A program made the position numbers and the translations under genes. Under the pieces are notes generated by a model. That model was not told the DNA's origin and ran no database searches. It was given only the letters and a program-made list of their open reading frames with translations. Below, in pieces: positions 44,877 through 56,562 of a stretch of 64,000 bases of DNA. Positions within the stretch are counted from its first letter, which is position 1, and the number at the start of each line of letters is the position of its first letter. This stretch comes from a virus: IMG/VR virus record IMGVR_UViG_3300031221_000001, positions 31,138 to 95,137 of that record; one strand, written 5' to 3'.

Positions 44877-45359
44877 ATGGGAAATTTTAGATCAACAAAA
44901 GTAATTGACGGATTCAGTACATGCTTTCGTCAATGGAGAGCAAAAGACACTCACTGTTCATTCATACATGGGTATGGAGTCAGTGTGAAATTTATTTTTA
45001 AGGGAGAATTAGATAATCGAAACTGGGTAGTTGATTTTGGAGGATTCAAGAGATCGAAAATAGGAATAGAAACTACAAAAGATGTTTTCTTACCACCAAA
45101 ACAATACCTTTCATGGCTACTAGATCACACAATGGTAGTTGCTGAAGATGATCCAGAACTTGAAACGTTTCAGGCGATGAGCGACAAAGGAATGATTCAG
45201 TTAAGAACGATTGACGGTGTAGGTTGTGAAAAGTTTGCAGAATACATTGGAACCAGATTTGCAGAATGGTGTACTGCTGAAACTATGGGACGTGCTAAGC
45301 TAATCTCATGTGAATTTAGAGAGCACGAAAAAAATTCAGCGATTTGGTTTGCTGAATAG
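44877..45359 (+). CDS. queD: 6-carboxy-5,6,7,8-tetrahydropterin synthase
   Basis: HCSFIHGY, WVVDFG, LDH, GCEKFAEY and EHEKNSA. Confidence 0.9.
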   Translation: MGNFRSTKVIDGFSTCFRQWRAKDTHCSFIHGYGVSVKFIFKGELDNRNWVVDFGGFKRSKIGIETTKDVFLPPKQYLSWLLDHTMVVAEDDPELETFQAMSDKGMIQLRTIDGVGCEKFAEYIGTRFAEWCTAETMGRAKLISCEFREHEKNSAIWFAE

Positions 45360-45379
45360 ATGATGTGTGGTTATCTTTA
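45348..45379 (+). promoter_or_regulatory. Bacteroidota-type promoter (TTTG-N20-TATCTTTA) overlapping the queD 3' end
   Basis: TTTG 45348-45351; TATCTTTA 45372-45379. Confidence 0.6.
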
Positions 45380-45760
45380 TCTACATACATAAAAGATCGT
45401 AAAATGAAAAAGCTAAGTAAAAGAGTATCAAAGAATGGATACGTCTACAAACAGACTCAAAGATATGACTGTCCAGTTTCTGGAAGATCAGTTATTATTT
45501 ACAGCATGCATACTAACGACGACGAAGAAAAGTTAATTGCACACGAGACCTTTATTATCCCAATTCGAAAAAAGCCAATTACAACTCCTAGCGGAATAAT
45601 AGTTCCTCCAGGAGAGAAGTTTCCTGGCAATCAGGAGTTTGGAACTACAGTCAAGGGAAGTAATTGCGGAGGAATTGATTCACAAACTCAAATTCTAGAG
45701 GAATTTGAAAAACTCAAAAAGTATTTACAAAATGGAAAAAGCAAGTTCAAAACCAGCTAA
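45365..45760 (+). CDS. Hypothetical protein (likely start ATG 45404)
   Basis: ORF between queD and queE, downstream of its own promoter motif. Confidence 0.65.
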   Translation: MWLSLSTYIKDRKMKKLSKRVSKNGYVYKQTQRYDCPVSGRSVIIYSMHTNDDEEKLIAHETFIIPIRKKPITTPSGIIVPPGEKFPGNQEFGTTVKGSNCGGIDSQTQILEEFEKLKKYLQNGKSKFKTS

Positions 45761-46499
45761 GAAGACTATTCTCGAGGTTTACAGAGCCGTTCAGAGTGAA
45801 GGTAGTCGAATAATGCCTACAGTGGTGATACGTACATCAGGATGTACTCATCGATGTTATTTTGGCGAAGGAGGTTGGTGTGACTCATGGTACACCTCGA
45901 TTCATCCTGAGAAGTCATTATATGACATTGAAGACGTTAAGCAGATGTACAAAGACAATCCTCAGATTAAAGAAATGATGATCACAGGAGGATCTCCGAC
46001 AATGCATCCAAAACTATTGCAAGAGCTAACTCAGTTTGCTAAAGAAAACGGAATTGTAACTACAATAGAAACTGAAGGATCACATTACGTAGAAACCGAT
46101 CATCCGATAGATTTGATTTCACTATCTCCTAAATTAAGCAATAGTGTGCCAGTGCTGGGAGCGGTCACTCCTAAAGGAAAGGTAGTAGACGAGAAGTTTA
46201 TAAAGCAACACAATAAGTTCAGAATGAACATCGACACGATGAAGCAGATGCTGGAATACCACACAGACTATCAGCTGAAGCCGGTGTGGGGTGGTGGAGA
46301 AGAAGCTTTGCAAGAGATTAGGGATTTGGTTAAAGAATTAGGTATTCCAAACAATAAAGTATGGATGATGCCTGCAGGAGACACTAGAGAACAGCTAGTT
46401 AAAATGTATCCTGTCGTAATGGAACAGTGCATTGAGGAAGGTTGGAACTTTACGGGAAGACCGCACATTATAGCCTATCAAGATCAAAGAGAAGTGTAG
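45705..46499 (+). CDS. queE: 7-carboxy-7-deazaguanine synthase (radical SAM; likely start ATG 45732)
   Basis: QSEG, RTSGCTHRC...WCDS, ITGGSP, IETEG and SLSPK. Confidence 0.92.
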   Translation: MKNSKSIYKMEKASSKPAKKTILEVYRAVQSEGSRIMPTVVIRTSGCTHRCYFGEGGWCDSWYTSIHPEKSLYDIEDVKQMYKDNPQIKEMMITGGSPTMHPKLLQELTQFAKENGIVTTIETEGSHYVETDHPIDLISLSPKLSNSVPVLGAVTPKGKVVDEKFIKQHNKFRMNIDTMKQMLEYHTDYQLKPVWGGGEEALQEIRDLVKELGIPNNKVWMMPAGDTREQLVKMYPVVMEQCIEEGWNFTGRPHIIAYQDQREV

Positions 46500-46873
46500 T
46501 GACCGTTCAAGATAGGGAGAGGGCTTATAAAAAGAATAGATACAAGAGCGATCCGAATTTTCGAATGAGAATTCTCCTCAGATCTAGACTTTATCAAGTA
46601 GTAAAAGGCAAGATGTCTAAAGAGAGTGCAGAAATCCTCGTAGGATGTAGCTATACTGAACTGATCATCTACATAGAGTCTCAATTTAAGCCAGGAATGT
46701 GCTGGGAAAATAGAAAGCAGTGGCATTTAGATCACAAAGTTCCTTGCGCAAAGTTCGACCTCACTATAATTGAAAATCAAAAGAGATGTTTTCATTACAC
46801 TAACCTTCAGCCATTATGGGCAAGCCAAAACTTATCAAAAGCAGCAAAATTAACTATAAAAACAAATAAATGA
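46442..46873 (+). mobile_element. Free-standing HNH homing endonuclease-like gene (likely start GTG 46499)
   Basis: GM.WEN...WHLDHKVPC..FDL......CFHYTNLQPLWA..NLSK; inserted between queE and folE. Confidence 0.75.
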
Positions 46874-47517
46874 AACTACTATCGAGAGCTAACGGAAACG
46901 TTGCTAGAACAGAAGTTGAAAAACTTGAAATGCTAGAAAAGGCACAGTATCATTACGGAAAATTCCTAACATCAATGGGATTTGACTGGGAAGCGGATCC
47001 TCACACCGTAGACACTCCGAAAAGAGTTGCAAAAGCGTGGATTAACGATCTTATCAGCGGATCGATCAATCCAATGTGTAAAGTCACCGCTTTTCCGAAT
47101 CACGAAGGATATACAGGACTAATTTGTCAAACACAAATTCCTGTAATTAGTATGTGTGCTCATCACAACCTAAGTTTTATTGGAGTAGCGCACGTAGCGT
47201 ACATTCCAGGTAAAAGTAAAGACGATATGGTTGTAGGACTATCTAAGCTAAATCGAATCGTAGATTGGTACAGTAGAAGACCGAACATCCAAGAATCGTT
47301 GACGAAACAAATTCACGACGAAATCGACAAGTTGTGTGTCGGTAATCGAGGAGTGGCTGTAGTAATTGAATCTCAACACAATTGTGTTAGATGTAGAGGA
47401 ATCAAGAATAGTAGTGTGATGAAAACTTCTCAAATGAGCAAGTACTTTTTCGACAACAGTATAGGAACTAGACATGAATTTTTTAGTTTAATTGATCAAT
47501 CACGTCACAATGGATAG
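46870..47517 (+). CDS. folE: GTP cyclohydrolase I
   Basis: DTPKRVAK, SMCAHH, GLSKLNR, QESLT.QI and HNCVRCRG. Confidence 0.95.
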   Translation: MKLLSRANGNVARTEVEKLEMLEKAQYHYGKFLTSMGFDWEADPHTVDTPKRVAKAWINDLISGSINPMCKVTAFPNHEGYTGLICQTQIPVISMCAHHNLSFIGVAHVAYIPGKSKDDMVVGLSKLNRIVDWYSRRPNIQESLTKQIHDEIDKLCVGNRGVAVVIESQHNCVRCRGIKNSSVMKTSQMSKYFFDNSIGTRHEFFSLIDQSRHNG

Positions 47518-48025
47518 TATATTTTCAACTCAAAAGGCAATTAAGAAAATGGTTCATAAGTGTGCCTGTAGCATACAGGCACGTACGTTAAATCCTCCAA
47601 TTCCTGTAGTGATGTTAGGAGTGTTGAATGGAGCAATGCCATTTTTAACTGACCTAACTAGAAACTTGCCTTACATGGACATGCAGATAGATACAATTCA
47701 ATGCAAGAGCTACAGTGGAATGTTCGTTCGTGAAAAAGTTAAGATAACTAAAAAGCCAGATCTTGATTTGAATGGACTTCGAGTGATTATTGTTGAGGAC
47801 ATCGTTGATAGTGGAGAAACTATTACTGCCATCAAAAAATATCTCAACAAGAGCTATAAAGAGATCAGTAGCATAGAGGTGTGTTCGTTATTTAAGAGAG
47901 ATGGTTGTGATCTATACTTAGAGCACCTAGGTCGCGTAGTTCCTGATGGACTATGGTTGTATGGATACGGAATGGACAACGACCAATTAGACAGAAACAT
48001 TCCAGAAGTAATGATTAAATCGTAA
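47492..48025 (+). CDS. hpt: Hypoxanthine-guanine phosphoribosyltransferase-like enzyme (likely start ATG 47510)
   Basis: GVLNGAMPF, SY loop, PRPP motif VIIVEDIVDSGET, and YGYGMD...RN. Confidence 0.85.
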   Translation: MINHVTMDSIFSTQKAIKKMVHKCACSIQARTLNPPIPVVMLGVLNGAMPFLTDLTRNLPYMDMQIDTIQCKSYSGMFVREKVKITKKPDLDLNGLRVIIVEDIVDSGETITAIKKYLNKSYKEISSIEVCSLFKRDGCDLYLEHLGRVVPDGLWLYGYGMDNDQLDRNIPEVMIKS

Positions 48026-48035
48026 AACAAAAACA

Positions 48036-48575
48036 ATGTTAAATTCAAGACAGATTTTAGATCAAAAGATTATCACAGGACCAATCGATGACGATATGGT
48101 AGCACAAGTAGGAGTTGACCTACGAGTAATTGAAATCAAGAGCATTTATGGGGGAGGAGTAGTTCCTCAACAAGGCAAAACTAAATTAGCTCACAAAGAG
48201 CCTGTTAAAAGAAACGGTGGAAGAGAGGTTGGATTAGAAAATGCAGTATGGCTATTACAGCCAGGAGCATACGACGTAACCTTTGAGCAAGGATGTGACA
48301 TTCCTGCAGACAAAGTAATGCTACTTCGCCAAAGAAGCTCTTTGTTAAGAAATGGATCAATCTTACATTCCAGCGTATTTGATCCAGGATTCAGTACAAA
48401 GAATGTAGGAACAGTTCTCATAGTAATTTCTCCAATCGTAATCGAATTTAAAGCAAGAATTGCACAAGCATACATTCACGAATGCACTGAGGTCGCAAGT
48501 GAAGATTTATATGACGGTCAGTTCCAAGGAGACAAGCAAAGAGATCAATCAAAAAACGTAAAGGATGCAAAGTAG
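48036..48575 (+). CDS. Trimeric dUTPase / dCTP-deaminase-fold enzyme
   Basis: GVDLR, RSSLLRNG, VFDPGF, RIAQ and YDGQFQG. Confidence 0.85.
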   Translation: MLNSRQILDQKIITGPIDDDMVAQVGVDLRVIEIKSIYGGGVVPQQGKTKLAHKEPVKRNGGREVGLENAVWLLQPGAYDVTFEQGCDIPADKVMLLRQRSSLLRNGSILHSSVFDPGFSTKNVGTVLIVISPIVIEFKARIAQAYIHECTEVASEDLYDGQFQGDKQRDQSKNVKDAK

Positions 48576-49533
48576 AGTCGTAATAAATCTCCAAGTTGAA
48601 GGAATACATGCATGGCCTGGAGTCACAGAAACCAAATATGTAAATAAAGTAGGATATTTACAATTTCCACACAGACATACGTTTGAATTCAAGTGTGAGA
48701 AAAGTGTTAGTCACGCAGATAGAGACATTGAAATCATCGACTTAAAGCATCAAGTCCTAATATATCTTAAACAAAAGTACACTGACGCTTCACGAGTAAA
48801 TTCTACAGGCATTGTCCATGATTTTGGTACTAATTCTTGTGAAATGATTGCTGAAGAGTTAGTGAAACATTTTAAGTTAGAGAGATGTGAAGTTCTTGAA
48901 GATGGAGAAAATGGTGCTGTGGTTTATGAAGATCGTGTAGAAGATTTTCCTCCAAAGTACTATTTTAAGGCAAAAGAGGTACCTGAAGACTTTAGAGACA
49001 ACATTATAAAAAAAATGGAACATCGAATGGTTTTTGGCATAGAGCCTCCCATAGACACTAGAGGAAAGAACGTTACATTCATTTGTAGTTATCTTAAAGG
49101 AGGTAAGAGCACCTTTTCTCACCTACTTGCTCAAGGAATGGACTGTAGATCGCCAGTGGCAAATAAGATTAAGGTGATCGAAGTTAGTGAAATTGTGAAA
49201 AAGCTTCTCAACAAGAGTGAGAGATCTGATTTGCAAGGACATCCAGAACTCAGCGATCAGATTTATCAAGAAATACTAAGAGCAAGCATGGATTACGAAA
49301 ACGTAATCGTTAGCGGAGCACGTCAATTGACTTTACTGAAAGCATTTCCAGAAGCAACGTTTATCTGGATTGATACGCCAAACGACGTCAGATATCAAAG
49401 GTTTAGAGATGATAAGTCGGCAAAAGACCCTAATAGTGGCGAAGCATCTTTTCACAAAGCAAATCTAGGTGACCTTGATTTAGGAATTGCCGATGTAAAA
49501 CAATACATTTTTAAAAGAAACGGATGTCTGTAA
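48565..49533 (+). CDS. DpdL-like T-fold protein (putative CDG decarboxylase) fused to a P-loop NMP-kinase-like domain
   Basis: N-terminal EGIHAWP, LxxxHRHxF (LQFPHRHTF), SCEMIAE and EDGENGA; C-terminal SYLKGGKST, IVSGAR and IDTPNDVRYQR. Confidence 0.75.
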   Translation: MQSRVVINLQVEGIHAWPGVTETKYVNKVGYLQFPHRHTFEFKCEKSVSHADRDIEIIDLKHQVLIYLKQKYTDASRVNSTGIVHDFGTNSCEMIAEELVKHFKLERCEVLEDGENGAVVYEDRVEDFPPKYYFKAKEVPEDFRDNIIKKMEHRMVFGIEPPIDTRGKNVTFICSYLKGGKSTFSHLLAQGMDCRSPVANKIKVIEVSEIVKKLLNKSERSDLQGHPELSDQIYQEILRASMDYENVIVSGARQLTLLKAFPEATFIWIDTPNDVRYQRFRDDKSAKDPNSGEASFHKANLGDLDLGIADVKQYIFKRNGCL

Positions 49534-49546
49534 GATAATAAAGAGG

Positions 49547-49554
49547 TATCTTTA
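49547..49554 (+). promoter_or_regulatory. -7 promoter element TATCTTTA upstream of the ligase gene
   Basis: Same octamer as at 3085, 45372, 51884 and 56593; the -33 element is weak. Confidence 0.45.
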
Positions 49555-49578
49555 TGATATAATTTAAAAGACAGTAAA

Positions 49579-50703
49579 ATGAAAACATTATACAAGAGAG
49601 CTAGAAACGGAAAGATTCAACAATGGAGTGTTGAAATTGAAGGAGACAAGTACAGAACTACTGAAGGATACAAGTACAGAGCTACCGAAGGATACGTTGA
49701 TGGAAAACTAACAACGTCTGAATGGACAGTTTGTCAACCTAAAAACGTAGGTAGATCTAATGAAGTTTCTGCTCCAGAACAAGCAGTTAAGCAAGCAATT
49801 TCAAGAGCTAAAAAAAAGAAGGATCGAGGATATGTTGAGGACATATCCTTCATTGATCAAGTAGAGATAGTGGATCCGATGCTTGCATACAAATGGAAAG
49901 ATCATAAAGACAAGACTGTAGGACTTCTTGCGAGTCAACCAAAACTTGACGGAATTCGCTGTGTAGGTACAATAAATGGACTATTCACTCGACAAGGGAA
50001 AAAGATAACTTCTGCACCTCACATTGAATCTGCAGTAATTAAAATGCTTGACGGAGTTCCTAAAGGAGTCACTCTTGACGGAGAGCTTTACAACCATGAC
50101 TTGAAAGAGAATTTCAACGAAATAACTTCAATTGTAAGAAAGCAAAAGCCTAAGCAAGCAGATTTAGAAAAATCTAAGCAAGTTTTGCAATATCATGTAT
50201 ATGACATTGACCATCAGAGACAGACGTTCGCACAAAGATTCTCTGCACTGAAAATTCTAGTGCATCAGCAGAAAGAAGATTCTCCAATCAAACTAGTTGA
50301 TACTGTATTTATTGAAAGAAACGATGCGGAAGACAATGAGCCTTTAATGACACTTTATCAAGGATATTTAACTGCAGGATTTGAAGGACAGATGATTCGT
50401 GGAGCAAATAGCTTGTACAAGTCAGGTCGTAGTAAAGATTTGTTGAAGAGAAAAGAGTTTGAAGATGGCGAATTTCAAATAGTCGACATTGAAGAGGGAG
50501 CAGGAAATCGTAGTGGAATGATGGGAAGGGTTAAATTTGATGGATTTAATTCTAATGCACGTGGAGGGTACGACTTTTACAAAGAATTGTGGGAGAACAA
50601 GGACAAGTACATAGGAAAGATGGCTACTGTTAGATATCAGAACTTAACTCCAGACGGTAAGCCGAGATTTCCAGTAATGATAGCGATAAGAGACTATGAG
50701 TAA
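49579..50703 (+). CDS. ATP-dependent DNA ligase
   Basis: QPKLDGIRC, LDGELY, YHVYD, EGQMIR and RFPV. Confidence 0.92.
   Translation: MKTLYKRARNGKIQQWSVEIEGDKYRTTEGYKYRATEGYVDGKLTTSEWTVCQPKNVGRSNEVSAPEQAVKQAISRAKKKKDRGYVEDISFIDQVEIVDPMLAYKWKDHKDKTVGLLASQPKLDGIRCVGTINGLFTRQGKKITSAPHIESAVIKMLDGVPKGVTLDGELYNHDLKENFNEITSIVRKQKPKQADLEKSKQVLQYHVYDIDHQRQTFAQRFSALKILVHQQKEDSPIKLVDTVFIERNDAEDNEPLMTLYQGYLTAGFEGQMIRGANSLYKSGRSKDLLKRKEFEDGEFQIVDIEEGAGNRSGMMGRVKFDGFNSNARGGYDFYKELWENKDKYIGKMATVRYQNLTPDGKPRFPVMIAIRDYE
49646..49693 (+). repeat. 24 bp imperfect tandem duplication inside the ligase gene (KYRTTEGY/KYRATEGY)
   Basis: acaagtacagaactactgaaggat / acaagtacagagctaccgaaggat. Confidence 0.85.
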
Positions 50704-50715
50704 GAACAAGCAGCG

Positions 50716-50746
50716 GTGTGAGGCTCTTTGAAAAGAAACCTCACAC
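50716..50746. promoter_or_regulatory. Stem-loop after the ligase gene
   Basis: GTGTGAGG...CCTCACAC inverted repeat with no U-tract. Confidence 0.45.
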
Positions 50747-50837
50747 TCATTAATGGACTGCAAAATTAATCAAGACGCTAGCAAAGTAAAAGAGTGTTTA
50801 AATTCTAATGCCTGAAAAAGGGGAAAACTAATTTAAT

Positions 50838-51077
50838 ATGTCAAGAAGATCAGCAACGTTTAATGCATGTGACTTTTTAGTAGAAAAAATTAAGAATCAC
50901 TGCTTAGCGCATCAAGGTGAAATGCCTAATGCGATGACGATCAGTCCTAATCTGTACGAAAAAGTTCGAGAATTTTGTACAGGAGAACAGTCCAGACTGT
51001 TTATGGGAGTTGAGTTATATAGATCAAGAGATCTAGAATACACACAAATTTTATACAAATACAAAACACACACATAA
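50838..51077 (+). CDS. Hypothetical protein
   Basis: 79 aa, TAATG-coupled to the DpdA-like gene. Confidence 0.65.
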   Translation: MSRRSATFNACDFLVEKIKNHCLAHQGEMPNAMTISPNLYEKVREFCTGEQSRLFMGVELYRSRDLEYTQILYKYKTHT

Positions 51078-51859
51078 TGGACTTTTATTACATACCACCA
51101 AGATCGCAAAACGAATTAATGCACAATGGAGACAGATACTTCTGTTTAGCACAACAGTATCTTAGCGATGATAAATACGCAGCATTCTTTCAGAATCTTT
51201 CTGACGATGCATGGGTCACTTTAGATAATGGCGCAGGCGATCATGATTTAGTGACTGAAGACGCTCTCTTTAAAGTAATGAAAGAGTTGATTCCTAACGA
51301 AGTGATTCCACCAGACATATTATTTGATCATACAAAAACTAGACAGAATGCACTTGCGTTTTATGAAAGAATGGTCAAAGAAGAGCTTGACGATAAGATA
51401 GAAGTGCTTTTCTGTCCTCAAGGCAAAAATCAGTTAGATTGGCTAACATCTTATGTGTGGGCATTGGAGCGAGATTGGATAAAAACAATTGGTTTAAGCA
51501 AAATATCTGTCCCTCAAGCGTTTTTAGGAGTGAAAGGAGACGTAGGCATTATGGAAGCACGACACAACTGTTTCAACTATCTCAAAGTGCACGGACTAAT
51601 ACAAAAACCAATGCACCTATTAGGAATGGGCGATCCTAGAGAATTTCAATATTATCAACAATTTGAAGAGGGTGCTTACATTAGAAGTTCAGATAGCTGC
51701 AACTCTATTTGGAGTGCAATCAATCAATTAGATTGGACTGAGGAAAAGTTCGAAAGAGTACCTACTCCAAAAGACTATTTTGATAGGGACGAGTTGACCG
51801 ACAAACAGAGAACTGTTTTTGAAAATAACGTAGACTTTCTCAAAGAGTCTGTAGTTTAG
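51077..51859 (+). CDS. Divergent TGT-like TIM-barrel protein, putative DNA guanine transglycosylase (DpdA3-like)
   Basis: VTLDNGA, VIPPDIL, PQG, HLLG and IRSSDS follow the catalytic motif order of TGT/DpdA; close to folE-queD-queE. Confidence 0.7.
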   Translation: MDFYYIPPRSQNELMHNGDRYFCLAQQYLSDDKYAAFFQNLSDDAWVTLDNGAGDHDLVTEDALFKVMKELIPNEVIPPDILFDHTKTRQNALAFYERMVKEELDDKIEVLFCPQGKNQLDWLTSYVWALERDWIKTIGLSKISVPQAFLGVKGDVGIMEARHNCFNYLKVHGLIQKPMHLLGMGDPREFQYYQQFEEGAYIRSSDSCNSIWSAINQLDWTEEKFERVPTPKDYFDRDELTDKQRTVFENNVDFLKESVV

Positions 51860-52411: not shown

Positions 52412-53030
52412 TGCAGTGGAGGCTTTAGTTGGAAGAAGGCCTAATACAATCAAAGAAGTTCGCGCTGAATTGATGGCTTTTCTTAAAATAAACAATGCTG
52501 AAGATTTAATTGTAGACGACGACATAGAAATGTTGTTGGAGCTATGTTCTATTTATAGCGAAATACCAATTGAGCAGCTAATTAACAAAAACATATCTAA
52601 GGAATTAAACAAAGAAGAGCTCTACAAAAGAGTTGGTCCGAGAATGATTCCTCTTCAAAGAGAAACTGACAAACGCTTACTAAAAAAAGTAGCAGAAGTT
52701 ATAGTGGACATTCATGCAGACTTGCATTATGAATTTAAACAGCACGGAATTGTGTTTATCGATCAAGTGAATGTAGTATTTTCTTTTGAACAGATAAGGT
52801 CGATAGAGGGAATGCCTAACGAACTTAGTGGAGCAGTAGTTTTTCCAAGAATTAAAAACCTTGAAGATAGAAATAGCTTGATTCCTCAAAGCTATTTAGA
52901 GGATAAAAAGTGGACATTCAAAACTCTAAGAAATAAATATAGCAGGCTAGAAGCTAGGTACTTAACAACTACCGAACTAATGGATCTACTAACTAATCGT
53001 GAAATAATTACACATGGGAATTACAGATAG
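52395..53030 (+). CDS. Hypothetical protein
   Basis: 211 aa ORF overlapping the dnaE start. Confidence 0.7.
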   Translation: MKVVINAVEALVGRRPNTIKEVRAELMAFLKINNAEDLIVDDDIEMLLELCSIYSEIPIEQLINKNISKELNKEELYKRVGPRMIPLQRETDKRLLKKVAEVIVDIHADLHYEFKQHGIVFIDQVNVVFSFEQIRSIEGMPNELSGAVVFPRIKNLEDRNSLIPQSYLEDKKWTFKTLRNKYSRLEARYLTTTELMDLLTNREIITHGNYR

Positions 53031-56000
53031 TCTAAAACAATGGCTGAAAGAAAATTCAGTAAACTATGCAGAATTGGGATTCGGTAGAGTTCATGTAAAA
53101 GGACTGGGATCTCTAATAGAGTTCATTCCAAGAGAATTTGGCAACACAATAGATGTGCAAGGGAAAATGTTCACTCTGAACATAGGCCAGCAAGTGATTG
53201 AGTACATCATTGACAATAAAGTAGATCACGTGATTTATGAATTTGGAGGTAACCATTACTACACACCAATATCTCACATCGCAAATGCACAAATGGTTTT
53301 ACTTAAAAATGTTGGAGGTCATGACGATTCGTTGATTCCAGATTTTGGAAGAGCATTTCTAGGAGTTCATGGAAGATATGAGATGATGAACGGAAGTAGA
53401 GACTATCAAGATTGGTGTGATAAAGCAAAATTCCTAAAATTCAAAGCATTAGGAATTTGTGAAAAGAACACTCTAGCAGGAACTCTTCCGTTTCAAATGG
53501 CGTGTGTTAAGAACAAGCTTCAACCAATTATAGGATACACAGTCGAAGTGGAGAATGGTAAAGGAGAGCATTTTGATTTAAGACTGTATTGTATCAATAC
53601 AAAAGGATGGAGAAATCTTTTGAGAATCAACAAGCTAGTAAATGTCGATCAGGAAGGATTTGCGTTCGAAAAGCAATTACTTGAATATGGCGAAGGACTT
53701 TTATGTTGCATCTCTCCTGGAATGCACGCAACAAAGCTAATGCTTACGTCATATAAAAGAGCTTTCGACAAGACAATGTTTCAAATCACAACTAATGAAT
53801 ATGCAGGAAACGTTAAAGACAAAGAGATCCTCTCTTCAATCAAAAACTATTTAGACAATTTTCGAAGCATTGTAGATCCGATACTAATTAGCGACGCATA
53901 TTGTATCGACAAAGACGACACTCATATTCGTACTGTATTAAATAAGCAAGGAAAAGTTCAATTTAATCACTCAACAACCAATCACTATTTTAGAAGCCTT
54001 TCTGAGCAGTTCGTTGAATTAGAACCGCTATTTAGAATTGAAGACGGAAGGTTAGAGGACGTATATATTGATTCCTTTGAATCACTAGATTGGGTAATTG
54101 AAAATTGCAAATTTAACATAAACACCAAAGAATTGTTCTTACCAAAGTATGAAATGACTGAGGCTGAGCAAAGCGAATATAATGGAGAGACCTCAGACTT
54201 CTTTGACGATTTAATTGCTGATGGAATGAGGAGAAAGTTTGAAAAAGAACTATCGGGTCCTAATGGAGATTCTTTTGAAAACGAACTGTGGGAGAGAGTA
54301 GATTCAGAGCGTGCAGTAATAGTTAAAGGTGGCTTTATTGATTATTTTTTAATTTTGTGGGACATTGTAAATTGGTGTAAAACGCAAAACATTCAGACAG
54401 GACCTGGAAGAGGGTCTGCAGCGGGATGTTTGATATCATATTTGTTGGGAATCGTAAAGATAAATCCTCTAAGATATGACTTGATTTTTGAACGCTTTCT
54501 CAATGAATCACGTATACAATCAGAGCTTCCAGATATTGATATTGACTTTGCTTCAGACAGAAGAGATGAGGTGATTGAATACATGAAAAAAAGGTACGGT
54601 GAAGATTATGTTTGTAGAGTAGGAACGTATGGTACTCTTCAGATGAGAGGTGTATTGAAAGAACTTGCAAGAGCTTACGGAGTTCAAGGAGACAAGTATA
54701 ACATGAACTTTGTGACGAAATTGATTAGTCAAGACAACGGAACTTGGGAACCTTTATTTAAAGACGCAGCTTCTGAGCCTTTGCTCAAGCAGTTTGTTAT
54801 TGACAATCCTAGAATCGTAAACGATGCTAGGATTGCACTAAACTCAATCAAATCAGCTTCAGTACATGCATGTGCAACTATTATAGTTCCAAAAATCACT
54901 GACGAGGAGGGGAATTCGTTAAACATCTACGACCAAATTCCAGTAAGAAAAGATTCTGACGGAACTTTGATTAGTGAGTGGGAAGGAGACGTGATGGCCG
55001 ATGCGGGATTTTTAAAAGAAGACATTCTATCAACCAAACAGATGGCTAAGATTGGTTCGATATTTGATTTAGTCAAGGAAAGAGAGGGTATACAATTAGA
55101 TATGGAAGAGATTCCACTCGATGATGAAAACGTGTATCGTCTGTTTCAGAAAGGATTAAATCAAGACGTATTTCACTTCGGATCGAGTGGATTGACGATT
55201 TACTTGAAGGACGTTCATCCAGAAAATATCGATGAATTAATTGCATGTATTGCACTTTATCGTCCAGGAGCTATGGCATCCAACGCACACACGGACTTTG
55301 TTAAACTTAAAAAAGGCGAAAAAGAGGTGACGCACGATTATCTTCTACAATCAGTGACTTCAGAAACTTATGGATTGTACATCTATCAAGAACAGATTAT
55401 GAAAGCCGCTCAGACATTAGGAGACTTTAGCTTAGCTGAAGCTGATGGTGTTAGAAAAGCAATGGGTAAAAAGATCAAGGATAAAATGGACTCGTACAAA
55501 GTTCAATTTGTTAAAGGAGCAGTCAATAAAGGATGTGACAAGCTTGAGGCGGAAAAGATTTGGAACAAGATGGAAGTGTTTGCTGGTTATGGATTCAACA
55601 AATCTCACGCAGCAGCGTATAGTGTGATAGGATATTACTGTAACTGGTTAAAGTATCACTATCCATTGGAATTCTGGACAGTAGCTTTTCAATATGCAAA
55701 GAATGAAAAGATTCAAGACTTTGTTGCAGAAATTAAAAGAATGGGACATATAGGAATTGTCGCTCCAGACATAAACAAATCTCACTTAGAATTTCATTCA
55801 GATCCAGAACAATATAAAATCTACTGGAACCTTTCTCAAATTAAATACGTAGGAGAGGCTGCAGCAAGTGCAATCATTGAAGGTAGAGATAAGGACGGAA
55901 AGTTCTTTTCAATTGAAGAGTTCAACGAAAGGGTTCCTAGTAGAGCAGTGAATAAAAGAACTGTAGAGCACTTAATTTTAGCAGGATGTTTTGATGAAAT

Positions 56001-56562
56001 GTACTCAGTTCGACAGTCTAGTGATAGGCTACAAATTCTCCAAGAATACTATGAGTTGAGAAAAGAGGAATTGCCTAAAGAGTATAAGGACAATCGAGCA
56101 GTGGATCATTATTGGTCTATTAGACAAGCAGAGGTGAGTAAATTATCAAATTTAGATTACATCAAACTGTTTAGACAAACTCAGTTTGCCAATTACACCA
56201 GTGAATACGTTAGTAGTGAAGAGGTGTCGAAACCTTTAGAGCGTAAAGTCAAGCAAAACGTTATGATAGCAGGTACGGTAGTTGAGGCTGTAATTAGAAA
56301 GACTAAAAAGGATAAAACAGAATATGCTGTAATACGATTGATGCAAGACCAATATCAAATGCAAGTCAGAGTGTGGCCACAACAACTTAATCCTAATGAC
56401 GACCAATTCGATGTTAGATTTGACGGCCTTAAAGAGTTTATTGAACAAGACAAAAACAAATTATGTGTTTTTAGAGGAGTGATGGAATACAATGACTACG
56501 TCAAAGGCAATGAGATTGTACTGTCCGATAGAATTAATGGACCTACGTACGAAATATTTTAA
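53014..56562 (+). CDS. dnaE: DNA polymerase III alpha subunit (family C)
   Basis: GPGRGSAAG, FERFLN, PDIDIDF, ALYRPG, YQEQIM and YGFNKSHAAAY. Confidence 0.95.
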   Translation: MGITDSLKQWLKENSVNYAELGFGRVHVKGLGSLIEFIPREFGNTIDVQGKMFTLNIGQQVIEYIIDNKVDHVIYEFGGNHYYTPISHIANAQMVLLKNVGGHDDSLIPDFGRAFLGVHGRYEMMNGSRDYQDWCDKAKFLKFKALGICEKNTLAGTLPFQMACVKNKLQPIIGYTVEVENGKGEHFDLRLYCINTKGWRNLLRINKLVNVDQEGFAFEKQLLEYGEGLLCCISPGMHATKLMLTSYKRAFDKTMFQITTNEYAGNVKDKEILSSIKNYLDNFRSIVDPILISDAYCIDKDDTHIRTVLNKQGKVQFNHSTTNHYFRSLSEQFVELEPLFRIEDGRLEDVYIDSFESLDWVIENCKFNINTKELFLPKYEMTEAEQSEYNGETSDFFDDLIADGMRRKFEKELSGPNGDSFENELWERVDSERAVIVKGGFIDYFLILWDIVNWCKTQNIQTGPGRGSAAGCLISYLLGIVKINPLRYDLIFERFLNESRIQSELPDIDIDFASDRRDEVIEYMKKRYGEDYVCRVGTYGTLQMRGVLKELARAYGVQGDKYNMNFVTKLISQDNGTWEPLFKDAASEPLLKQFVIDNPRIVNDARIALNSIKSASVHACATIIVPKITDEEGNSLNIYDQIPVRKDSDGTLISEWEGDVMADAGFLKEDILSTKQMAKIGSIFDLVKEREGIQLDMEEIPLDDENVYRLFQKGLNQDVFHFGSSGLTIYLKDVHPENIDELIACIALYRPGAMASNAHTDFVKLKKGEKEVTHDYLLQSVTSETYGLYIYQEQIMKAAQTLGDFSLAEADGVRKAMGKKIKDKMDSYKVQFVKGAVNKGCDKLEAEKIWNKMEVFAGYGFNKSHAAAYSVIGYYCNWLKYHYPLEFWTVAFQYAKNEKIQDFVAEIKRMGHIGIVAPDINKSHLEFHSDPEQYKIYWNLSQIKYVGEAAASAIIEGRDKDGKFFSIEEFNERVPSRAVNKRTVEHLILAGCFDEMYSVRQSSDRLQILQEYYELRKEELPKEYKDNRAVDHYWSIRQAEVSKLSNLDYIKLFRQTQFANYTSEYVSSEEVSKPLERKVKQNVMIAGTVVEAVIRKTKKDKTEYAVIRLMQDQYQMQVRVWPQQLNPNDDQFDVRFDGLKEFIEQDKNKLCVFRGVMEYNDYVKGNEIVLSDRINGPTYEIF

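Follow-up and report, generated by a model that had tools for sequence, protein, structure and literature searches.

Why should a phage gene cluster for 7-deazaguanine DNA modification carry a purine phosphoribosyltransferase (PRTase) and a nucleotide kinase? The question arises in a 64,000-nucleotide stretch of DNA (the window) from an uncultured phage represented by a metagenomic contig only; the stretch is the last 64 kb of the 95,137-bp IMG/VR record IMGVR_UViG_3300031221_000001, which CheckV rates 92% complete. At window positions 44,877 to 51,859, genes for the deazaguanine enzymes QueD, QueE and FolE are followed by genes for a PRTase of the hypoxanthine-guanine phosphoribosyltransferase (HGPRT) family, a dUTPase-fold enzyme, a fusion of the putative decarboxylase DpdL to a kinase, and DpdA3, a predicted base exchanger with the fold of tRNA-guanine transglycosylase (TGT). 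Gene content and order mark the kinase as a core partner of DpdA3 and not as a bystander, coupled both genomically and physically to DpdL and DpdA3. The reading that we favour, evenly poised between right and wrong in our judgement, is a pre-replicative route in which DpdA3 would exchange the base on a free deoxynucleotide, the kinase would re-phosphorylate the product and HGPRT would salvage the guanine. The genes on which this turns are the following.

44877-45359, + strand: QueD (6-carboxytetrahydropterin synthase), T-fold, motif CSFIHGY (PF01242 (PTPS), 1e-8; phrog_2389, 4e-33).
45705-46499, + strand: QueE (7-carboxy-7-deazaguanine synthase, radical SAM) (PF04055, 4e-9; phrog_2076, 4e-47; TIGR03365, 3e-14).
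46870-47517, + strand: FolE (GTP cyclohydrolase I) (PF01227, 8e-44).
47492-48025, + strand: divergent HGPRT-family 6-oxopurine PRTase, overlapping FolE (PDB 4qri, 6e-21; TIGR01203, 1.5e-30).
48036-48575, + strand: nucleotide hydrolase of the trimeric dUTPase/dCTP deaminase (DCD) fold, archaeal dUTPase type (PF22769, 1.5e-9; NF002598, 1e-24; PDB 9w59, 9e-10).
48565-49533, + strand: DpdL::kinase fusion, 322 aa, its start overlapping the dUTPase-fold gene by 11 nt.
48565-48939, + strand: DpdL domain of the fusion, residues 1-125 (phrog_17812, 5e-24; motif LQFPHRHTF).
49060-49533, + strand: nucleoside monophosphate (NMP) kinase-fold domain of the fusion, residues ~166-322 (AAA_18, 1e-5; P-loop SYLKGGKST).
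51077-51859, + strand: DpdA3, 260 aa, beginning ~1.5 kb past the fusion gene (phrog_20335, 1e-61).

Enzymes of the FolE, QueD and QueE families convert GTP to 7-carboxy-7-deazaguanine (CDG). All three are present while QueC is absent, as in the 7-deazaguanine (dDG) system of the type of Cellulophaga phage phiST, and this supports assignment of the stretch, by its genes, to a phiST-type, QueC-less dDG genome-replacement module of a Flavobacteriia-type phage. An earlier note on this DNA had made the same dDG-type assignment and had seen no queC in the window; this extends to the whole record, where neither QueC (by PF06508) nor a ribonucleotide reductase (RNR) was found, and QueC was likewise not found in five relatives. 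The genes that the note had named (QueD, QueE, FolE, PRTase, dUTPase-fold enzyme, DpdL::kinase and a TGT-like DpdA3) all lie on the + strand where it placed them, and its observation was correct in every particular.

The nearest described relatives are phiST with its close kin and Chryseobacterium phage MA9V-3. In phiST the order is QueD, QueE, FolE, the MazG-like gp039, DpdL (gp040), an 'ATPase' (gp041) and DpdA3 (gp042), then DnaE and ligase. The window has the same enzymes in the same order, near DnaE, ligase, metallophosphatase and RecA, with identities to phiST of 39% for DpdL (E 9e-19), 42% for DpdA3 (over 99% of gp042, E 3e-59), 57% for QueE, 48% for FolE and 50% for QueD; the kinase is homologous to gp041 at 23% identity (E 7e-7). 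It differs in that DpdL and kinase form one polypeptide, in having a dUTPase/DCD-fold enzyme instead of the MazG-like one and an HGPRT-family PRTase as an extra, in the position of the ligase, which is within the cluster, and in DnaE, which is one gene where that of phiST is split. Particular to the window clade are the DpdL-kinase fusion, a full-length HGPRT, the dUTPase-fold enzyme in place of MazG, and the lack of a phage RNR.

Virion DNA of phiST contains 302,000 dDG per million nucleotides and gives no dG peak, all G being replaced (Cui, Hutinet et al., NAR 2023, PMC10516641). In that paper gp040 received the name DpdL and was proposed to be a CDG decarboxylase, while gp042 was named DpdA3 and proposed as a post-replicative enzyme swapping bases in DNA. 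Co-expression of DpdL and DpdA in E. coli yielded no dDG, and no DpdA3 could be made to work in the authors' E. coli system (PMC10516641). The earlier note had placed the PRTase and the kinase outside the known pathway, and they do stand outside the published one: the kinase homologue gp041 was set aside since the other deazaguanine phages then known lacked it, and a PRTase is nowhere mentioned (PMC10516641). In our literature search no paper connected phage 7-deazaguanine DNA with a kinase or with a PRTase. New relative to that publication are the kinase-DpdA3 linkage, the DpdL fusions in two clades, the kinases of phages CP220 and immuto, and the retention of a PRTase in one clade.

Linkage was measured across loci. 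A degenerate-pattern scan of IMG/VR, built from a 44-sequence DpdA3 alignment, gave 53 loci; hidden Markov models (HMMs) made from the window proteins were searched iteratively against all open reading frames (ORFs) of these loci and the hits mapped, partners being sought within the fetched DNA. Among 53 loci with full-length DpdA3 genes (from IMG/VR, phiST, MA9V-3 and the window) the kinase is present in 49, as a separate gene in 43 and as a DpdL::kinase fusion in six. Its end lies no more than 1.6 kb upstream of DpdA3 in 48 of the 50 cases having both, and its start no more than 100 nt from the end of DpdL in 30 of the 42 unfused cases. About 20 T4-like loci hold only the DpdL-kinase-DpdA3 triad within 10 kb, and a gp15-like tail protein is present in these genomes. 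On a maximum-likelihood DpdA3 tree the fusion falls in two well-separated clades, one formed by the window with L003-L005 (support 100/97) and the other, across the midpoint, by L052/L053. Among 50,697 phage records, BLAST found the kinase domain only in DpdA3 phages. Tracking of DpdL as such was considered and rejected: the kinase follows DpdA3, because phages ACP17, Bakedbeans and Roos, which have DpdL without a phiST-type DpdA3, are also without this kinase.

Some of these loci show further arrangements. In two T4-like loci, L030 and L037, ThyX is inserted between DpdL and kinase. In the triad-only T4-like clade the gene after DpdA3 invariably encodes a 223-aa GT2-like glycosyltransferase (L034:10789-11460, with the same position in ~18 T4-like loci), and a conserved run of small ORFs comes next. 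Rhizobium phage RHph_I1_18 (L056) has a distant DpdA3-like domain fused to DUF3310 in a 422-aa protein, whose neighbours are DpdL, a macro-domain (Appr-1-p processing) protein and a dUTPase-fold enzyme of the window's subfamily.

In the fusion protein, residues 31-39 (LQFPHRHTF) match the DpdL motif LxxxHRHxF, which stands in place of the CxxxHGH of QueD, and the kinase domain matches the MA9V-3 kinase (30% identity, E 3e-14). An AlphaFold2 (AF2) model (pLDDT 86) has a disordered linker at 125-165; its N-terminal half matches E. coli QueD (4ntk), and its C-terminal half matches best 3lw7, an AMP-bound adenylate-kinase-related protein from Sulfolobus (23% identity), then UMP/CMP kinases (1uky, 5ukd) and adenylate kinases, all including 3lw7 at Foldseek probability 1.0. 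T4 polynucleotide kinase ranks lower. In the kinase, G180 and K181 of the P-loop never vary, and neither do G251 and R253 of a G-x-R(-Q) motif that follows the third strand; Q254 of this motif and R279 in the lid are each conserved to 90% or more. We take the G-x-R-Q motif and lid Arg to be the equivalents of the adenylate-kinase DGFPR and lid arginines that grip the NMP phosphate. The model thus gives the domain an NMP-kinase fold. A scan of 1.8 billion 50%-identity cluster representatives returned dozens of 265-330-aa proteins covering both halves of the DpdL::kinase architecture. When ten longer DpdL-containing proteins were scanned with Pfam in search of further fusion partners, a single weak match to a P-loop family (CPT) was all that emerged. 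In MA9V-3 (L002:7647-8528) DpdL is the C-terminal third of a 293-aa protein whose N-terminal 180 aa have no Pfam match; we rejected that segment as a candidate PRTase, as it has no similarity to the PRTase of the window.

Other phages with full replacement likewise have kinases next to DpdA3. In Campylobacter phage CP220 the kinase HMM matches residues 188-311 of gp055 (E 1e-5), a protein that Pfam resolves into an HD phosphohydrolase and an AAA_33 kinase. Its gene is immediately upstream of that for the CP220 DpdA3 (gp056), and the next gene downstream of DpdA3 codes for gp057, an AAA_28 kinase. ADG nucleoside was noted in the cytoplasm of CP220-infected cells (Cui et al. 2023, PMC10516641). 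In Flavobacterium phage immuto_2-6A, where fdPreQ1 replaces 100% of G, the order is QueD, QueE, a 131-aa PRTase, FolE, a nucleoside triphosphate (NTP) pyrophosphohydrolase, DpdA3, DpdN, an AAA_28 kinase and QueF.

DpdA3 of the window belongs to a family of more than 140 relatives and is 45% identical to that of MA9V-3. Its AF2 model (pLDDT 96) is a TIM barrel of TGT fold that matches ArcTGT (1iq8) and Zymomonas mobilis TGT with VIA Z 16.9 and rmsd 3.1-3.2 Å over ~230 residues. The relation to TGT is one of structure alone: at the sequence level, a profile made from 44 DpdA3 proteins had no match among PDB sequences. At 260 aa the protein is at least 100 residues shorter than TGTs (360-390 aa), and in place of the Zn-binding CxCxxC...H subdomain we found only four scattered Cys (C23, C113, C165, C208). 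D50 (LDNG) and D206 (RSSDSC) are invariant in the 44 sequences and, standing in the motif order expected of the superfamily, are candidates for the catalytic Asp pair (general base and ribosyl nucleophile). The window protein is acidic (net charge -17, pI 4.7; family median pI 5.3 over 118 sequences). One metagenomic protein of 379 aa, P0034, joins DpdA3 at its C-terminus to a PF18909 dATP/dGTP diphosphohydrolase (MazZ-type) domain (E 1.5e-28). A search for longer DpdA3 fusions yielded only a LAGLIDADG-containing form, P0274 (463 aa, LAGLIDADG_3 domain), which may be an intein or an inserted homing endonuclease.

The PRTase is a divergent member of the HGPRT family by its sequence. It matches bacterial Hpt at 1e-18 (Salmonella Hpt 1j7j aligned alongside 4qri), its nearest cellular homologues are Hpt proteins at 31-34% identity, and it scores 106 bits with TIGR01203, below the equivalog cut-off of 150. 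It keeps the phosphoribosyl pyrophosphate (PRPP) loop EDIVDSGET with the N7-reading Asp (D106), the Ser-Tyr of loop II (KSYSG), LFKR with the O6-binding Lys, the stacking W155 and the Mg/PPi Asp and Arg (GMD...DR); Asn takes the Lys/Arg position of the L-K/R-G turn. None of the eight phage PRTases aligned departs from D106 or W155, the short Gpt-like ones (L024, L035 and phage immuto) among them, and because the N7-reading Asp is kept in all phage copies guanine fits as the substrate. All five members of the window clade (the window, L003, L004, L005 and L054) have the PRTase, at 32-46% identity; outside this clade it occurs only in the Gpt-like forms of L024, L035 and immuto, and it is absent from 46 of the 53 DpdA3 loci, phiST included. 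Co-occurrence with dpd genes in relatives, on which the earlier note had staked its proposal, thus holds for the kinase across DpdA3 loci and for the PRTase throughout the window clade.

The dUTPase-fold enzyme scores 38.5 bits with PF22769 (cut-off 27) and has the dUTPase/DCD motifs QRSSLLRNG and FDPGF; by eye, the catalytic position of dCTP deaminases is not occupied by Glu. It reaches 87 bits with the NF002598 dUTPase model, below the equivalog cut-off of 130, and its PDB match 9w59 is a 'probable dUTPase'. A neighbour gene in MA9V-3 encodes a protein 46% identical. The enzyme occurs in 23 of the 53 DpdA3 loci. All 29 loci with FolE nearby have either this fold (23) or a MazG-like protein (6), mostly just upstream of DpdL. 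One fold was exchanged for the other in place, because L027 (dUTPase fold) is sister to L029/L031 (MazG fold) with support 100/100. The idea that the subfamily is specific to DpdA3 phages was rejected, because Bacteroides phage DAC16 encodes a member (HMM E 8e-45) and yet DpdA3 and FolE are both missing from its complete genome.

What might unite these components is a nucleotide-level pathway. A phage or host NTP pyrophosphatase would convert dGTP to dGMP; DpdA3 would swap guanine for 7-deazaguanine on this free deoxynucleotide, or for CDG that DpdL would decarboxylate afterwards; the fused kinase would raise the modified deoxynucleoside monophosphate (dNMP) to the diphosphate; and host nucleoside diphosphate kinase would supply the triphosphate for incorporation by the phage DnaE. 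HGPRT would turn the released guanine into GMP, which would both drive the reversible exchange towards its product and replenish the GTP that FolE uses. Were DpdL to act after the exchange, the fusion would join two consecutive steps. We lean to this reading because an NMP-kinase fold needs a small-molecule acceptor that is phosphorylated or can be phosphorylated, and would be useless to a base swap at the DNA level. Also in its favour are the linkage and fusions of the kinase, the acidity of DpdA3 and its minimal TGT barrel without a Zn motif, the failed reconstitutions in E. coli and the cytoplasmic ADG nucleoside of CP220-infected cells. The layout of the classical triads of base-replacing phages, in which a dNTPase, a dNMP-modifying enzyme and a dNMP kinase act in turn, seems to be reproduced, since (d)NTP phosphohydrolases of three or four folds surround or fuse to DpdA3 or the kinase; by analogy, DpdA3 would occupy the place of the dNMP-modifying enzyme. 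Judged from genes alone, the window has candidates for all three roles, and these are genomically linked. More tentative, and in our view somewhat apter to fail than to hold, is the full claim that DpdA3 would be the first TGT-superfamily base exchanger on free deoxynucleotides (dGMP + 7-deazaguanine -> 7-deaza-dGMP + guanine) and not a DNA transglycosylase, that together with the kinase it would make complete G replacement pre-replicative in phages of the phiST, CP220 and immuto types, and that HGPRT would recycle the guanine in the window clade.

Several points weigh against such a pathway. All characterised TGT-superfamily enzymes that we know of act on polynucleotides, so that a mononucleotide substrate would be unprecedented. 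The kinase and DpdA3 roles are predictions, and the mechanism as a whole rests on comparative genomics and fold assignment. Four of the 53 loci show no kinase in the fetched DNA, the fusion of DpdA3 to PF18909 is a single sequence, and the acidity of DpdA3 is only a hint as to its substrate, net negative charge being compatible with DNA binding. The dUTPase-fold enzyme may be an ordinary dUTPase, as which it scores best, and one ordinary dUTPase swapped for another is a live explanation of the exchange with MazG because the phiST MazG-like protein gave HHpred matches to dimeric dUTPases (PMC10516641). For this phage the dNTPase step is on uncertain ground, since PF00692 (dUTPase family) has no match anywhere in the genome and a ThyX-like gene is present. 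This 312-aa ORF, outside the window at genome 13098-14036 (locus L063), is the sole thymidylate synthase found; no ThyA was found in the record. Genes of phage replication and nucleotide modules can also lie together because they are expressed at the same time, and not because they serve one pathway. Taken to its extreme, this last point would make the PRTase, the dUTPase-fold enzyme and the kinase generic nucleotide-metabolism genes with no specific tie to the deazaguanine genes beyond a common block of early or middle transcription. The cluster does belong to a replication module, flanked by helicase and DnaE, a scan for terminators and promoters between its genes showed nothing above chance, and the dUTPase-fold subfamily occurs in DAC16 without the pathway; for the kinase, however, recurrent independent fusions to DpdL, a near-universal DpdL-kinase-DpdA3 order across siphovirus-like and T4-like genomes, and confinement of the domain to DpdA3 phages by BLAST make this explanation very improbable.

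More serious, and still unlikely, is the published scheme with a recycling loop added: after replication DpdA3 would swap every G for 7-deazaguanine made by DpdL, HGPRT would return guanine to GMP, the kinase would serve as a guanylate kinase making GDP, then GTP would go to FolE, and the dUTPase-fold enzyme would be an ordinary dUTPase feeding ThyX. The TGT fold, whose characterised members all act on nucleic acid, speaks for it, as do the conservation in HGPRT of all 6-oxopurine residues including the N7-reading Asp, the dUTPase scores and DAC16 occurrence, the ThyX-like gene, and the arithmetic of full replacement, which frees about one guanine per G so that salvage would pay. It also assigns DpdA3 the role that Cui et al. 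2023 (PMC10516641) proposed. It leaves the DpdL-kinase fusion unexplained, since DpdL would there catalyse a non-adjacent step on the free base, and equally the CP220 fusion of a homologous kinase to an HD phosphohydrolase beside DpdA3 and the one DpdA3 fused to a dATP/dGTP diphosphohydrolase domain; most DpdA3 phages, moreover, have the kinase yet no PRTase, DpdA3 action on DNA has never been reconstituted, and 100% replacement is seen only in DpdA3-type phages, other DpdA types giving 0.1-30%. The earlier note had offered just such a closed loop as one of two models: its salvage role for HGPRT fits best, while its post-replicative setting ranks second to the pre-replicative route. Its other model was pre-replicative, as the evidence leans, and had the PRTase act on 7-deazaguanine with reduction to follow, which is disfavoured by the same facts that speak against a ribonucleotide route like that of tubercidin. 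In that route the PRTase would join CDG (or 7-deazaguanine) to PRPP, DpdL would decarboxylate the nucleotide, the kinase would form the diphosphate, host RNR would reduce it and the dNTP would be polymerised, leaving DpdA3 only to mop up residual G. It has a precedent in TubE, which is CDG-specific with decarboxylation after ribosylation (PMC6112128), it too would explain the fusion by consecutive DpdL and kinase steps, the PRTase gene is part of a tight run of genes leading from FolE to the fusion, and with 106 bits against an HGPRT cut-off of 150 its specificity may have shifted. We nevertheless think it improbable: the PRTase is missing from the 46 loci (phiST again among them) where DpdL, kinase and DpdA3 remain, it keeps the Asp that reads N7, an atom deazapurines lack, a Gpt-like PRTase is also found in the preQ1-derived immuto system where CDG is not the end base, and a universally conserved DpdA3 would be left without a necessary role. 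Because the window clade has no RNR, exchange at the deoxynucleotide level explains the PRTase clade more easily, and since DpdA3 is the universal component it is a better candidate than the PRTase for making the modified nucleotide.

Four further genes lie inside the stretch beyond those of the earlier note.

45365-45760, + strand: 131-aa ORF, function unassigned, with weak Zn-ribbon matches (NCBIfam Zn-binding domains), kept in L003 and L004.
46442-46873, + strand: endonuclease-VII-like ORF between QueE and FolE, overlapping the QueE end (phrog_1035, 9e-12).
49579-50703, + strand: ATP-dependent DNA ligase between kinase and DpdA3 (PF01068, 7e-13; PF14743, 1e-8).
50838-51077, + strand: 79-aa ORF, its end overlapping the DpdA3 start by 1 nt; the search gave no homologue.

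The endonuclease-VII-like ORF is probably a mobile or accessory nuclease and not a pathway enzyme; a mobile or homing-type element is suggested by the variable placement of its homologues across related clusters, one of which, in L052/L053, separates the fusion gene from DpdA3. The ligase stands between kinase and DpdA3 in several separate clades (the window, L004, L027, L029/L031), a placement that may be chance within a replication module or a link to nick repair. QueD of the window has CSFIHGY where the signature is CxxxHGH, its final His being replaced by Tyr. Every gene from 41.9 to 63.8 kb of the window is on the + strand, and the replication and nucleotide block runs from a DnaB-like helicase through two conserved ORFs without assigned function and the deazaguanine genes to DnaE, metallophosphatase, RecA and an SbcC-like protein. 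DnaE (window 53014-56562) is a single 1182-aa gene, as in L003-L005, and is two genes in phiST, L006 and L033. No terminator-like sites were found on the + strand within window 43.0-53.5 kb, and promoter-like sites there were not above chance. Megablast of the region against the 50,697 phage records gave no match.

A conserved, repeatedly fused kinase offers a reason for the failed DpdA3 reconstitutions, namely missing components and the wrong substrate, and the phosphohydrolases and salvage PRTases that recur around DpdA3 point to the same testable alternative. If DpdA3 does act on free deoxynucleotides, the known kinds of pre-replicative base replacement would rise to four, the TGT fold would gain a type of reaction new to it, and 7-deaza-dGTP, which finds wide use as a sequencing and PCR reagent, could be made enzymatically. 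If it does not, the kinase and HGPRT still define a guanine-recycling arm absent from the published pathway.

Among known systems, CP220 and immuto resemble the window in that small P-loop kinases and an NTP or HD phosphohydrolase flank DpdA3 and dG is fully replaced, and immuto also in having a PRTase. They differ in their end bases, in lacking DpdL and in having flanking kinases that are partly AAA_28, and their DpdA3 proteins are only ~25% identical to that of the window.

The T4 pre-replicative triad consists of gp56 dCTPase, gp42 dCMP hydroxymethylase and gp1 dNMP kinase. The Z-genome phage S-2L has MazZ, PurZ and DatZ (PMC8342488). The proposed route would follow the logic of these triads, an NTP (pyro)phosphohydrolase, a monophosphate-altering enzyme and a kinase together leading to full replacement of one base, and the MazZ-type domain fused to DpdA3 in P0034 is a further likeness to the Z-genome triad. 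In the window the monophosphate-altering step would fall to a TGT-fold base exchanger, which is unprecedented, and the dNTPase is only a candidate that may be a plain dUTPase.

The tubercidin pathway is closest in chemistry. There too FolE, QueD and QueE lead to CDG without QueC, a purine-type PRTase belongs to the cluster and decarboxylation gives an unsubstituted 7-deazapurine. The tubercidin and toyocamycin PRTases TubE and ToyH act on CDG and preQ0, respectively, TubE refusing 7-deazaguanine (PMC6112128). The tubercidin decarboxylase is of the UbiD family and not T-fold as is phage DpdL, and the product is a free ribonucleoside antibiotic. The phage PRTase, unlike TubE, resembles a salvage HGPRT, and not every DpdA3 system has one.

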